From Methanococcus maripaludis (GTDB lineage Archaea > AGJL01 > Methanococci > Methanococcales > Methanococcaceae), in assembly GCF_002945325.1 (NCBI RefSeq), contig NZ_CP026606.1, positions 300,001 through 332,000 of the forward strand: 32,000 nt of DNA, written 5' to 3'. Below are positions 15,719 to 19,330 of the stretch, piece by piece; the first letter of the stretch is position 1; the number at the start of each line of letters is the position of its first letter. Below the pieces are notes generated by a model, which did not search any database, had not been told where the DNA came from, and worked only from the letters and a program-made list of their open reading frames with translations. A program made the position numbers and the translations under genes.

Positions 15719-16171
15719 TTATATTTCATTTATAAATTTTTTTAAATCCGAAAAATTTTCTGGCTTTACATACAGCCTAAACCAGTTATCTTCAAAACCC
15801 CATAATATGGAGGGTATTTTCTTTTCTTTTAGTTTTAAATAGCCATAAAAAAGTCTAGATATTTTATCCATAATGTCAATTTCTCGAAATTCTGATATTA
15901 ATTCAATTTTATCGTTTCTGTAAGGTATTCTAACGTTACAAATCCCTAATTTTTCAGAATTTATATCCTGAAATATCACTGTATCGTAGGTGCATAATTT
16001 TGAAAAGTATGCATTTATCGTATTCATCGAAATATCATTTTTTTCACACATCCACTCTTCATATACGCAGATATCTTTAAAAGGATGGTTTCTAGATACA
16101 ATATTTTCCCAAATCTGATTTAGGGGCGCTTTTGAATAATAATTTCTGGTTTCGATATCCTCACCGTTCAT
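15719..16171 (-). CDS. Hypothetical protein (orphan, no recognisable domain)
   Basis: The track gives a 170-aa ORF from TTG 16231. I prefer ATG 16171 (150 aa), because GGGGTGGT lies 4 nt upstream and a TATA-like TTTTATATAA (minus strand, 16191-16200) lies just beyond it. That TATA box would fall inside the longer ORF. No family recognised. Confidence 0.5.
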   Translation of the reverse strand: MNGEDIETRNYYSKAPLNQIWENIVSRNHPFKDICVYEEWMCEKNDISMNTINAYFSKLCTYDTVIFQDINSEKLGICNVRIPYRNDKIELISEFREIDIMDKISRLFYGYLKLKEKKIPSILWGFEDNWFRLYVKPENFSDLKKFINEI

Positions 16172-16579
16172 GAGTACCACCCCAAAAACGTTATATAAAA
16201 TAAATAAAACTAAAAGAATCAAACAGTTCAAAAGTTTAAAGGCAATAATATATCTGCCGTTCTTTGATATATATTATTCGGATAATCCATTCTTTAAACT
16301 TAATTTAGACAATTAATTGAAAGTAATACGAAAAAAAAGAAAAAATGACGGCTACCTACTAAATAAATAATTATAATATTCATTTAAAAATATATTAATG
16401 GGCAAAATATAATAATCCAAAAGAAGGGGATAATTATATAAATTTTAAAAATTATAAATTTTATCAGGAAATAATCTTTGATATTGCCTAAAACTCCGTT
16501 TTTTACGAAATTTTATGGGAATAATCGAAAATTAATTCCTACGAACTCTCTATTTAAGCTAAATCAGCTTATTAAATTG

Positions 16580-16627
16580 AGGCATTTGTTTTTGGAGCCC
16601 CCCTTCAAAAAATGCTTAATTTTTTTT
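16580..16627 (+). terminator. Imperfect hairpin followed by T8 (terminator-like) inside a long non-coding spacer
   Basis: Positions 16580-16617 fold into a ~15-bp stem. The arms are AGGCATTT(g)TTT(tt)GGAG and CTTCAAAAAATGCTT, with a CCCCC loop and two small bulges. TTTTTTTT follows at 16620-16627. It is not positioned after any annotated plus-strand gene. Confidence 0.25.
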
Positions 16628-16775
16628 CTATTTTTAAAAAAGTTTAGAGTTACCCCAATTTGGAAAATAAAATTTACATAGTATAATATTTTTCTTTTGT
16701 TCACAACCTATCAATTTTTTATACACCTCCTAACAAAGTTATGATTTATACTAAATAGCTTAATTTGGTGATTTT

Positions 16776-18299
16776 GTGGGGATTGGCGATATTTTCAACG
16801 CGGGAAAATTTAAAAAAGAAATTGAAAATTTAAAAAAGGAAAACGAACGTTTAACTCAAGAAATTGAAAATTTAAGAAAAGAAAACGATGAATTAAATAA
16901 AAAAGAGTTAAATCTTGAGCAATTGAAATATCTTGATTTAAAAAAGGAAATTGAAAATCTCGAAAGTACAAAGAAAGAGAAAGAAAATGCCTTAAAAATT
17001 TCTTTAGAGAATTTGGATCAAAAACGACAAGATAAAATATACCATATAAATGCAGAAATTAAAAGATTAGAAGAAGAAAAACAAGCTAAAATTAAAGGAA
17101 TCGATCTAGAACTAAAAGCATTTACAAAAAAGACCAATTTAGAAATGAAAAAATTAAAAGAAAGAAAAAATGAACTTTTAGATACTATCGAGGATCTTGA
17201 AAAGAAAATTATCTCTTTTGAAGAAGAAATTTTAATACAATCTTTTGGATTTTATGATCCAAGGTATAATTTAACCACCTCCGAAGCATACAAAAATAAA
17301 TTAACAGAAGTAAGAACTCAACAAAAAGAAATGGTTAAGAATAAAAAAGCTGTTGATTATTTTGACGGTTGGGAACTAAATGGAAGTAAAAAAGAAGGTC
17401 AAAAGATGAACAATGATAATATAAAACTCATTGTTAGGTCTTTTAATAATGAATGTGAAGCCAGTGTTTTCAAAGTTAAATATAATAATATAGATGCGAG
17501 TGAAAAAAGAATTAGAACGTCTTATGATACATTAAATAAGTTGGGGGAAAGAAATAGAATAACAATTACCTCCAGATACCTCAATTTGAAATTACAGGAA
17601 TTGTATTTGGCTTATGAATACGAATTAAAGAAAAGGGAAGAACGTGAAGAACAAGCGAGAATAAAAGAACAGATGAGGGAAGAAGCCAGGGTTTTGAAAG
17701 AAATAGAAACAATGAAAGCCAAAATTGAAAAAGAAGAAACTCATTTTAAACAGGCAGTTGCCGGGATAAAAGAAAAAATGGAAAATGCGACTGAAACTCA
17801 GAAATTAAAATATGAAGAAAAATTAAGGGAACTCGAAGAGAAAATTAGGCTTTTAGAAAAAGATAAAGAAGATGTATACAACAGAGAACAGAATACAAGG
17901 GCAGGTTATGTATACATTATTTCGAATATCGGTTCGTTTGGGGATGACATATATAAAATCGGAATGACTAGACGTCTTGAACCATTTGAACGGGTAAGAG
18001 AACTTAGTGGGGCTTCCGTCCCATTCCCATTCGATGTTCATGCCATGGTATTTAGTGAAGATGCTCCAAAACTTGAAAATGCACTCCATAATTACTTTAG
18101 AGATAGACAATTAAATAAAGTAAACAACAAAAAAGAATTTTTCAAAGTTAATCTTCATGAAGTGGAGAAAGTTGTTAAAGAAAATCATAACAAAGTCGTT
18201 GAATTCACGAAAATTGCTGAAGCTGAACAATATCGCCAAAGTATTGCAATGGATAACAAAATAACTGAAAAAGAAGAAAAAATAGGGTATGAAGCTTAA
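16776..18299 (+). CDS. Coiled-coil + DUF4041 + T5orf172 (GIY-YIG-like/MUG113-type) nuclease-family protein
   Basis: 507-aa ORF with a GTG start 3 nt after GGTGAT and an in-frame stop at 16761. The first ~150 aa are heptad-rich (EIENLKKENERL...). The middle matches my memory of DUF4041 (SFGFYDPRYNLTTSEAYKNKL, KLIVRSFNNECEA, LAYEYELKKREEREEQARIKEQMREE). The C-terminus is T5orf172-like (GYVYIISN...IYKIGMTRRLEPFERVRELSGASVPFPFDVHAMVFSEDAPKLENALH...KEFF). I see no hydrophobic TM segment. Confidence 0.75.
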   Translation: MGIGDIFNAGKFKKEIENLKKENERLTQEIENLRKENDELNKKELNLEQLKYLDLKKEIENLESTKKEKENALKISLENLDQKRQDKIYHINAEIKRLEEEKQAKIKGIDLELKAFTKKTNLEMKKLKERKNELLDTIEDLEKKIISFEEEILIQSFGFYDPRYNLTTSEAYKNKLTEVRTQQKEMVKNKKAVDYFDGWELNGSKKEGQKMNNDNIKLIVRSFNNECEASVFKVKYNNIDASEKRIRTSYDTLNKLGERNRITITSRYLNLKLQELYLAYEYELKKREEREEQARIKEQMREEARVLKEIETMKAKIEKEETHFKQAVAGIKEKMENATETQKLKYEEKLRELEEKIRLLEKDKEDVYNREQNTRAGYVYIISNIGSFGDDIYKIGMTRRLEPFERVRELSGASVPFPFDVHAMVFSEDAPKLENALHNYFRDRQLNKVNNKKEFFKVNLHEVEKVVKENHNKVVEFTKIAEAEQYRQSIAMDNKITEKEEKIGYEA

Positions 18300-18317
18300 T
18301 TAGTAGGGGTGTCAATA

Positions 18318-18734
18318 ATGCATTGTACAGAATGTGGATCTGAAGTTTTTGAAAACGAAAAATTTTGTCATAATTGTGGGGCCAAAATTAGTAGAAATTT
18401 TAAAACAGATATGTCAATTACTACGAACGAGGTTAAAGAACCTGCAATGCAAGTTAAAACGATAGAAGCTCCAAAAACCGCCAAAGTCATCGCAGTTACA
18501 AATGACCGGAAACCTACCACAATGGTAAAAATCATCGCAATAATTCTTTCAATATTTTTACCAGGTGTAGGTCATATGATTTTGGGTGGTTCTTATATAA
18601 ATAAAGGACTCTGGATTTTTATTGGCACGATTGCATGTGCTGTAACAAGTTTTTTAATCCTTCCAATTCTCATACTTATGGGGCTCTGGATTTACGCCAT
18701 TTTTGATCTTGCAAAAGTCCAAACTATTGATTAA
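18318..18734 (+). CDS. Zinc-ribbon membrane protein (N-terminal CxxC-x11-CxxC ribbon, 2-3 C-terminal TM helices)
   Basis: I prefer ATG 18318, 6 nt after GGGGTG; the track start is GTG 18309. The stop of the upstream gene is only 18 nt away, which suggests an operon. The ribbon is CTECGSEVFENEKFCHNCG. A ~45-aa linker leads to IIAIILSIFLPGVGHMILGG...KGLWIFIGTIACAVTSFLILPILILMGLWIYAIF. T-runs follow the stop. Confidence 0.65.
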   Translation: MHCTECGSEVFENEKFCHNCGAKISRNFKTDMSITTNEVKEPAMQVKTIEAPKTAKVIAVTNDRKPTTMVKIIAIILSIFLPGVGHMILGGSYINKGLWIFIGTIACAVTSFLILPILILMGLWIYAIFDLAKVQTID

Positions 18735-18820
18735 ACTACTTTTTTTATTTTTAAATATAAATCTCAAAAATAATTTGCTATTTAAAATATACATTCTTAA
18801 AAAACGTTTAAAAAAGAAAA

Positions 18821-19330
18821 TTATGCTTTATTTGATTTTAAAATTTTAGATCCTCGCATAAGAGCAGTAAGTCCAGTTCTTGCAATTTCTTTTATGCCCA
18901 TTGGCCTTACAAGGTCTAAAAAGGCGTTTACTTTTTGTTCGTCGCCAGTAATTTCAACAGTGAGTGTTTCAGTGCTTAAATCGATAATTTTTCCCCTAAA
19001 TATATTTGCATACTGGATTACCTGAGATTTACTATCTTCAGTAGGCGCATAAACTTTTACAAGACATAATTCTCTTTGTACTGACTTTTTACTGTTTAAA
19101 TCGGTAACTTTTACAACTTCTACCAATTTATTCAACTGTTTTACAACCTGTTCAAGTACTGTATCATCTCCCTGAACAACTATTGTCATTCTTGCAACAT
19201 CAGGGTTTTCAGTGCTTCCAACAGTCATGCTTGAGATATTAAACCATCTTCTGGTAAACAGACCTGAAATTCTCTGCAATACGCCAGGTTTGTGCAAAAC
19301 CAAAACTGAAATGATGTGTTTGTGTTCCAT
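18821..19330 (-). CDS. ilvN: Acetolactate synthase small (regulatory) subunit
   Basis: I prefer ATG 19330 ([11 protein letters not shown]), 4 nt after GGTGAT. The ACT-type N-terminus is present ([32 protein letters not shown]). It lies directly downstream of ilvB. Confidence 0.9.

Follow-up and report, generated by a model that had tools for sequence, protein, structure and literature searches.

A strain-variable cassette of Methanococcus maripaludis with genes for a SNIPE-family nuclease and a small zinc-ribbon membrane protein

Can a nuclease family known for cutting phage DNA at the bacterial membrane operate in an archaeon, and does an archaeal member that lacks a membrane segment depend on the membrane protein encoded beside it? 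A 32,000-nucleotide stretch of the Methanococcus maripaludis genome (hereafter the window; NCBI RefSeq assembly GCF_002945325.1, contig NZ_CP026606.1, positions 300,001 to 332,000 of the forward strand) raises both questions at a locus of two genes, here called A and B. A encodes a protein of 507 amino acids (aa) related to SNIPE, also called PD-lambda-1, and B, 18 nucleotides (nt) further on, encodes a 138-aa protein with a zinc ribbon and predicted transmembrane (TM) helices. The initial annotation of this DNA, made from its letters alone, had suggested that the pair is a split version of a membrane-bound nuclease in which B supplies membrane localization in trans. We find that A is part of a mobile, strain-variable cassette and that it is very probably a SNIPE-family nuclease, by homology a defence effector. 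With moderate confidence we read the region as a horizontally acquired, strain-variable defence cassette with an archaeal SNIPE effector, in which B is a passenger and not a conserved subunit.

The nuclease and its cassette

SNIPE of Escherichia coli is an inner-membrane protein composed of an N-terminal TM helix, a DUF4041 domain plus a nuclease domain of the GIY-YIG type, and it cuts lambda DNA while this is being injected (Saxton et al., Nature 2026, Laub lab, PMC13190303), in line with the initial annotation; PD-lambda-1 was first discovered by Vassallo et al. 2022 (PMC9519451). The match of A to this family extends over most of its length. Pfam detects DUF4041 (PF13250, which Pfam now names 'SNIPE') over the full profile, positions 1-56 (E 1e-20, 73.8 bits against a cut-off of 27), followed by T5orf172 (E 1.7e-18) and, at aa 393-469, MUG113 (E 4.9e-20), all of them well over the curated cut-offs. 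The PADLOC model for PD-Lambda-1 (PDLC03976) aligns its positions 42-481, of 491, with aa 45-501 of A (E 1.9e-160). The hallmark nuclease residues Y378/Y380, Y393-K-I-G396, R399/R400, E434 and N447 do not vary among 20 homologues; their spacing relative to UvrC and I-TevI suggests catalytic roles, and E434 would be the counterpart of E414 in E. coli SNIPE.

An AlphaFold2 (AF2) model of A, built from the 20-homologue alignment with a mean pLDDT (predicted local distance difference test score) of 79.8, is divided into an N-terminal helical part (aa 9-148), an alpha/beta part (169-264), two long helices (266-375) and an alpha/beta nuclease domain (377-477). The N-terminal part consists of helices 9-41 and 47-148, mostly at pLDDT 74-95 and at about 62 near aa 41-50, which fits the coiled coil proposed earlier. 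The top Foldseek match of the model, a weak one (E 0.4), is the GIY-YIG nuclease Slx1, and a full-length profile of A had zero matches among the sequences of solved structures. No TM segment was detected in A, the best 19-aa Kyte-Doolittle window scoring 0.74. The gene coordinates and protein lengths, the pairing of DUF4041 with a C-terminal T5orf172/MUG113 domain and the lack of a TM segment in the initial annotation were thus all confirmed, the domains by Pfam hidden Markov models (HMMs). Compared with E. coli SNIPE, A has the same DUF4041 and C-terminal GIY-YIG/T5orf172 domains and the same elongated body of helices, and it matches the PD-Lambda-1 HMM over nearly the full length. It differs in having no N-terminal TM helix, in the second membrane gene beside it and in its host, an archaeon with ether lipids but without a periplasm or ManYZ.

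A homologue search in which the 8000 best candidates were scored returned at least 7545 homologues of A at E <= 1e-10. Among the matches listed, the closest relatives beyond M. maripaludis come from Clostridium botulinum and other Firmicutes, with 53-57% identity over the full length, and a Firmicute prophage protein that carries an N-terminal TM segment (L178; L and P numbers are labels of this analysis) is 66% identical to A over the body. Further archaeal homologues are found in Methanoregulaceae, Methanomicrobiales and Methanobacteriota metagenome-assembled genomes (MAGs; L033, L036, L051). The SNIPE paper analysed bacteria, mentions no archaea and did not examine neighbouring genes (PMC13190303), in agreement with the earlier statement that no characterised archaeal example was known. 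SNIPE homologues are abundant in viral contigs, often close to prophage ends, and PD-lambda-1, which is enriched in phages, has been treated as a single-gene system (bioRxiv 10.1101/2024.10.26.620412).

The strain distribution of the locus was followed by looking up the IlvN sequence of the window in public assemblies; identical IlvN proteins occur with or without the cassette, which at least 11 contigs carry and 8 lack. A and B are 100% identical to M. maripaludis proteins, and the reading frame of A is intact and identical across at least 8 contigs. The cassette measures 2.16 kb and consists of 129 bp of upstream sequence, A, B and a 73-bp tail. Empty sites are seen in L258, L259, L260 and L262. 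When those of L258 and L259 are aligned with the window by blastn, the flanks are 96-98% identical up to 16646/16647 and again from 18808, and the indel contains exactly A and B. The initial annotation had described an accessory insertion in an ilv neighbourhood. This is borne out, with its extent narrowed to the cassette, and the presence/absence comparison across strains that it had proposed finds the locus variable. Two genes located between ilvC and A, one similar to bile-acid/sodium symporters and one for a 150-aa protein, occur in strains with the cassette as well as in those without it and therefore lie outside the insertion.

How the cassette arrived is less easily reconstructed. Both junctions (16631-16646 and 18795-18808) contain an imperfect direct repeat, TTAAAAAA(C)GTTTA, and in the empty sites about 15 unrelated bases (AATTTAATTTAAAGAT) stand in place of the cassette. 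Because these bases are found in neither junction, the event was not a simple insertion with target-site duplication, and with the repeat imperfect as well we can assign no mechanism. Base composition, considered as a marker of origin, was uninformative, since the GC contents of A (0.29) and B (0.34) are both within the range of neighbouring genes.

A second copy of A in M. maripaludis C5 lies at another locus (L007 4877-8400, CP000609.1) and is 84% identical in aa and 79-82% in nt sequence. It is a pseudogene in pieces of 119, 31 and 354 aa, flanked by a 157-aa unknown gene on one side and a ParE/DUF2683 toxin-antitoxin pair on the other, with cas4-cas2-cas1 about 4 kb away; together these genes suggest a small defence island at a separate site in the chromosome. 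The DNA homology between the two copies spans 16703-18301 of the window and ends exactly at the stop codon of A, and neither tblastn nor blastn detected a remnant of B in C5. In its distribution, SNIPE behaves as a single mobile gene.

Within the cassette, A and B most probably share one transcript, because B has its own Shine-Dalgarno sequence, the spacer of 18 nt between the TAA of A and the ATG of B holds no terminator and a T7AT5 tract follows B (Table 1). No hairpin terminator was found within 16200-18900, the A-B spacer included. Oligo-T tracts have an established role in archaeal termination, and the one behind B is the likely terminator of the A-B transcript. B has the same orientation as A and lies in its reading frame; the open frame begins at 18309, and the ATG at 18318 gives the 138-aa protein. 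The GTG start of A is fixed by N-terminal alignment with homologues and by an in-frame stop at 16761, five codons 5' of it, which rules out a longer N-terminus. Two AT-rich boxes upstream of A may form its promoter.

The N-terminus of A and the family of B

A natural SNIPE without a TM segment is not unusual: 59% of homologues have one TM segment, 7% have two and 34% have none, and the N-termini of the TM-less members resemble DivIVA, DUF2510, PH, DUF4428 (a zinc ribbon) or an ATPase of type III secretion systems (PMC13190303). Given that a third of the family is built in this way, the lack of a TM segment does not in itself call for a partner protein. A shares the start M-x-x-x-D-I-F with TM-less homologues from Clostridium, Planctomycetota, Chloroflexota and others. 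Their N-termini follow the consensus M-[GS]-x-x-D-I-F-[KR]-x-x-K-[IF]-K; across 20 TM-less homologues M1, D5 and K13 do not vary, and conservation of F7 reaches at least 90%. A differs from other TM-less members in that PH, DUF2510 and DUF4428 were undetected in it. A DivIVA-like N-terminus was rejected as well: Pfam gave no match, and a profile of the 20 N-termini run against the Protein Data Bank returned coiled-coil noise (RSV F, keratin). Nor does the motif convincingly resemble an amphipathic membrane helix of the PspA/Vipp1 kind, since its hydrophobic moment over aa 2-19 is only 0.19. The PspA and Vipp1 sequences used for comparison give 0.42-0.57.

A related motif, G-[FIL]-x-D-[ILV], stands right after the TM segment in 4/32 TM-bearing SNIPEs (L019, L020, L189 and a further one that is dubious) against 1/48 controls. 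This hints that A is similar to a SNIPE body severed at the juxtamembrane point, a likeness that would be lineage-specific and no general rule. MGLFD is also the start of unrelated proteins whose genes lie immediately upstream of SNIPE genes (L044 1223-2413, L076 3257-3700, L077 3221-3643; for example MGLFDIFKK... and MGLFDKVF...), and an N-terminal motif of this type is therefore not specific to SNIPE.

The zinc ribbon of B passes the Pfam threshold for Zn_Ribbon_1 barely (E 6.6e-6, 26.2 bits against a cut-off of 25) and has a pLDDT of about 92 in the AF2 model. Kyte-Doolittle analysis marks hydrophobic segments at aa 66-92 and 96-135, and AF2, run with the family alignment, predicts helices at 68-89, 93-109 and 114-133 after a disordered linker. 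The zinc ribbon with two to three TM helices that had been read from the sequence is upheld by the Pfam match and these three helices. A word-indexed homologue search found only B itself. The full HMMER scan with B, against 1.84 billion representatives, recovered 655 relatives, many of them through the zinc ribbon alone. Relatives of 95-170 aa align over the full length, share the motif PGxG[HQ]..G..KG with G83, G85 and G90 invariant, and are annotated as 'zinc-ribbon domain-containing protein' or 'TM2 domain-containing membrane protein YozV'.

B thus has the full-length alignment, the motif and the N-terminal zinc ribbon in common with the YozV/TM2 proteins (Pfam TM2, DUF6677 and DUF5683). 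It differs from them in falling under every Pfam TM2 threshold: neither B nor its C-terminal half matched TM2 (PF05154) at E <= 1, and we do not class it as a member of Pfam TM2. Its relatives have weak DUF6677/DUF5683 matches only, and PADLOC returned nothing for B beyond a weak zinc-ribbon match. Members of this family are usually not found beside SNIPE, and the two closest to B sit without it. One of them (P0127; 39% identical to B over the full length, E 3.4e-15) is flanked by housekeeping genes, one for an HMGL-like synthase and one Rnf-like. The other (P0123; 47% identical over the TM part, E 1e-17) lies on a metagenome contig with a GC content of 0.33, similar to that of the window (L268 975-8691, Ga0210057_1003358), together with a tyrosine integrase, a HEPN_Swt1-like protein, an archaeal-type helix-turn-helix protein (HVO_A0261_N) and a D5_N/DUF5906 primase-helicase, a combination that probably represents an integrated mobile element. 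In many B relatives (P0297, P0301, P0304, P0340 and others) DUF2510 (PF10708) replaces the zinc ribbon. Since DUF2510 is also the third most common N-terminal match of TM-less SNIPE homologues (PMC13190303, Supplementary Table 3), the same small cytoplasmic modules decorate both families.

Is B a partner of A?

If B served A as a membrane anchor, similar genes should accompany SNIPE elsewhere. Genomes, metagenomes and viral contigs together supplied 240 SNIPE loci, which we reduced to 112 non-redundant complete proteins and classed by their N-termini. Twenty-eight had a TM segment only, 4 a zinc ribbon together with a TM segment, 7 a zinc ribbon only, and 73 the M-x-x-x-D-I-F motif or variants of it, a few truncated or unclassified proteins being counted with the last class. 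The four proteins of the second class (L038, L089, L098, L099) share with A and B taken together a Zn_Ribbon_1 domain, TM helices and a SNIPE body, and they show that a module of zinc ribbon and TM segment can serve as the N-terminal region of a SNIPE. They differ from the M. maripaludis pair in being single polypeptides, in carrying the module N-terminally and in TM parts that are not of the YozV/TM2 type. In a TM-bearing SNIPE of the Bacillales type (L095 3755-5227) the N-terminal TM region (KKWYLSAW...IIPFFVGLGLLIW) scored 4.8e-5 against an ad hoc YozV-like HMM, a score that may reflect similarity of hydrophobic composition only.

Genes flanking SNIPE were then compared by position. Small genes with a zinc ribbon and TM helices make up 7/212 of the SNIPE-adjacent genes against 4/758 of the non-adjacent flank genes (p = 0.003; two to three of the seven are dubious). 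Every TM2-type reading frame in the 240 loci directly adjoins SNIPE: it lies 20 nt upstream in L037, downstream in L046 and L122, 10 nt downstream in L124/L245 and in divergent orientation in L091. The four same-strand cases are all within about 40 nt of SNIPEs that are TM-less. Such a partner gene was present at only about 5% of the 80 non-redundant TM-less loci, more than 90% being without one, and the contrast between TM-less and TM-bearing loci, roughly 4-7/80 against 0/32, is not significant. Close relatives of the L046 SNIPE (L096, L113, L090) have different neighbours, and no relatives of the L046-type Zn/TM2 protein were found in viral contigs. The split-system inference of the initial annotation fails the test of co-occurrence across genomes that had been named for it in advance, as no B-like neighbour was found beside the C5 copy, at the C. 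botulinum locus or at the archaeal MAG loci L033, L036 and L051. What stands of the proposed A-B pairing is the joint gain and loss, the co-orientation and the tight spacing of the two genes; against it, relatives of B occur without SNIPE.

The same question asked from the side of the membrane protein gave a negative answer. In gut viral contigs (L271-L295), which provide the best bacterial look-alike of the A-B pair, the L245-type gene for a zinc-ribbon and TM2 protein is found at 95-100% identity in 25 contigs, where as a resident prophage gene it sits 10 nt 3' of a variable slot. A TM-less SNIPE fills this slot in 5/25; in the other 20/25 SNIPE is absent and the slot is mostly taken by a 412/427-aa protein that is unrelated to it and matches nothing in Pfam or PADLOC. 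What the alternative occupants share (compare L272 1121-2887 with L273 1190-2887) is confined to the 5' region, up to the opening codons MGFLD; it looks as though recombination at the start codon had exchanged the cargo genes. Among the best 80 of 536 viral Zn/TM2 loci, none (0/80) had a SNIPE within 2.5 kb, and their upstream genes fall into 18 clusters, which points to prophage accessory regions as a common home of the two. Most simply, SNIPE and TM2-type genes can both be read as cargo of such regions, with SNIPE tending to enter variable slots flanked by TM2-type genes. The YozV/TM2-like family of small zinc-ribbon membrane proteins, to which B belongs, is very common and, judged by the neighbourhoods, populates the accessory regions of mobile elements.

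By analogy with the E. coli work, we envision that A sits at the cytoplasmic face of the membrane and cuts viral DNA during injection. Behind the N-terminal motif and the coiled coil, DUF4041 would bind DNA and a tape-measure-like protein of the virus, the GIY-YIG domain would cut the entering DNA, and self would be discriminated from non-self by location rather than by sequence. Archaeal targets are plausible because head-tailed archaeal viruses with tape-measure proteins have been described. Like most TM-less members, A is probably a self-sufficient single-gene system, localized and restrained through its own N-terminal region or through host or virus proteins. B most likely came along with A as its neighbour from the donor element and would not be a conserved SNIPE subunit; that it is a co-transferred neighbour or an independent accessory gene is the account we favor, with a confidence that is moderate and not higher. 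Several observations weigh against it. A and B are gained and lost as a unit and form a compact operon with no terminator between them. E. coli SNIPE deprived of its TM segment is toxic through cleavage of the chromosome (PMC13190303), so that a natural TM-less form needs some restraint, and the two ways in which the N-terminus of A might have provided it found no support, neither membrane binding, given the low hydrophobic moment, nor a DivIVA match, which was not found in the profile search of solved structures. The four fused proteins, all bacterial and confirmed with Pfam, join a zinc ribbon and TM segment to SNIPE, and TM2-type genes, identified with TM2/YozV HMMs in the non-redundant set, account for 5/212 SNIPE-adjacent genes against 0/758 non-adjacent ones (p = 5e-4).

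These observations would be explained if B were a trans-acting membrane anchor or adaptor that replaces the N-terminal TM segment and shields the chromosome, an idea we regard as tentative and less probable than that of a passenger. In such a split SNIPE the zinc ribbon or the linker of B would bind A, and its YozV/TM2-like helices would hold the complex at the membrane. The system would have arisen when a TM-less nuclease of bacterial type was captured in a methanogen together with a membrane gene from an archaeal mobile element, as the bacterial nearest relatives of A and the integrase/D5-primase element around the nearest relative of B would suggest. The zinc-ribbon/TM2 or TM2 genes on the same strand as the TM-less SNIPEs of L046, L122, L124/L245 and L037, and the enrichment of both gene types next to SNIPE, would extend the idea to TM2/YozV zinc-ribbon proteins as interchangeable membrane docks. 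The joint 2.16-kb indel, the tight operon, the fusions and the toxicity of the truncated E. coli protein all speak for it. Yet the closest relatives of A and the other archaeal homologues do without a B-like neighbour, as do the great majority of TM-less homologues, and TM-less loci are not significantly richer in such genes than TM-bearing ones. The L245-type gene persists where an unrelated gene has replaced SNIPE, the other viral Zn/TM2 loci have no SNIPE at all, and the module is N-terminal in the fusions whereas B is encoded downstream. Membrane proteins that work with a cytoplasmic DNA-targeting effector at genome entry are known from Kiwa (KwaA/KwaB) and Zorya (cited in PMC13190303); they have no sequence relationship with A and B, and the analogy holds only if the split system is real.

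Two further explanations seem to us less probable still. B could be another kind of partner, either an immunity protein or a regulator that keeps a cytosolic nuclease in check or an independent membrane exclusion factor that shares the promoter of A. Such a role is compatible with the tight operon, the indel common to both genes, the toxic effect of SNIPE without its tether and the frequency of small membrane proteins in prophage accessory regions, but the PADLOC result for B, a family without established function and a pairing with SNIPE that is not conserved make it improbable. Least probable is the reading of the cassette as neutral cargo, with A either a selfish T5orf172 endonuclease of the homing type or a remnant in decay. 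T5orf172 domains are reported from phage homing endonucleases (PMC10448857), and the C5 copy is indeed a pseudogene; A itself has the full-length PD-lambda-1 architecture, an intact reading frame that is identical between contigs and all of the nuclease hallmark residues, and its coiled-coil/DUF4041 body is missing from homing endonucleases.

Features of the locus and significance

The coordinates of the cassette, its two genes and the signals around them are collected in Table 1. The protein encoded by the 150-aa gene upstream of the cassette has no match in Pfam, PADLOC or NCBIfam, and an AT-rich spacer of 600 bp with a GC content of about 0.25 separates that gene from A.

Table 1. Features of the A-B locus, in positions of the window.
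Feature	Position	Strand	Basis
Presence/absence cassette (upstream region, A, B and tail)	16647..18807	.	blastn, empty-site strains L258, L259
Gene A, SNIPE / PD-lambda-1 family nuclease, 507 aa, GTG start	16776..18299	+	open reading frame (ORF), Pfam, PADLOC, AF2
Conserved N-terminal motif of A, M-G-I-G-D-I-F-N-A-G-K-F-K-K	16776..16817	+	alignment
Long helical, coiled-coil-like region of A, aa 9-148	16800..17219	+	AF2 model
DUF4041 (PF13250) domain of A, aa 217-272	17424..17591	+	Pfam
GIY-YIG-superfamily nuclease domain of A (T5orf172/MUG113), aa 377-469	17904..18182	+	Pfam, alignment
Gene B, zinc-ribbon and YozV/TM2-like membrane protein, 138 aa	18318..18734	+	ORF, Pfam, HMMER, AF2
C4 zinc ribbon of B (CxxC...CxxC), aa 2-23	18321..18386	+	Pfam Zn_Ribbon_1
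Membrane domain of B, motif PGxGH...G...KG, aa 68-133	18519..18716	+	alignment, AF2, Kyte-Doolittle
Sequence upstream of A, conserved in the C5 copy	16703..16775	+	DNA homology to L007 begins at 16703
TATA-like AT-rich boxes, TTTATACA and TTTATAC	16718-16725; 16745-16751	+	sequence reading
Shine-Dalgarno sequence of A, GGTGAT	16767-16772	+	sequence reading
Shine-Dalgarno sequence of B, AGGGGTG	18305..18311	+	sequence reading; 6 nt before ATG
Oligo-T tract T7 A T5	18740..18752	+	sequence reading; 6 nt past the stop of B
Gene for 150-aa protein, divergent from A	15719-16171	-	ORF

Parts of this picture were already available. NCBI labels A as a DUF4041 domain-containing protein, tools of the PADLOC type would call it PD-Lambda-1, and the SNIPE family, its TM-less members and N-termini with a zinc ribbon (DUF4428) have been published. 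What is new is the archaeal setting, the exact indel, the combination of a Firmicute-like A with a YozV-like membrane gene B, and the finding that TM2-type genes are positionally associated with SNIPE, along with the evidence that counters it.

Location is what SNIPE uses to distinguish self from non-self, and studies of it have been confined to bacteria. An intact archaeal SNIPE raises the questions of whether nucleases that act at the site of entry also act on tailed viruses of archaea, by what means the chromosome is protected from a TM-less SNIPE, and what would substitute for the membrane cues of bacteria in a cell with ether lipids and an S-layer. M. maripaludis is genetically tractable, and its natural strains exist both with and without the cassette. 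If B did prove to be a trans-acting anchor, PD-lambda-1 would need to be re-annotated as a system that sometimes comprises two genes, and the abundant YozV/TM2 zinc-ribbon proteins of prophages, which are at present without a function, would gain a role.

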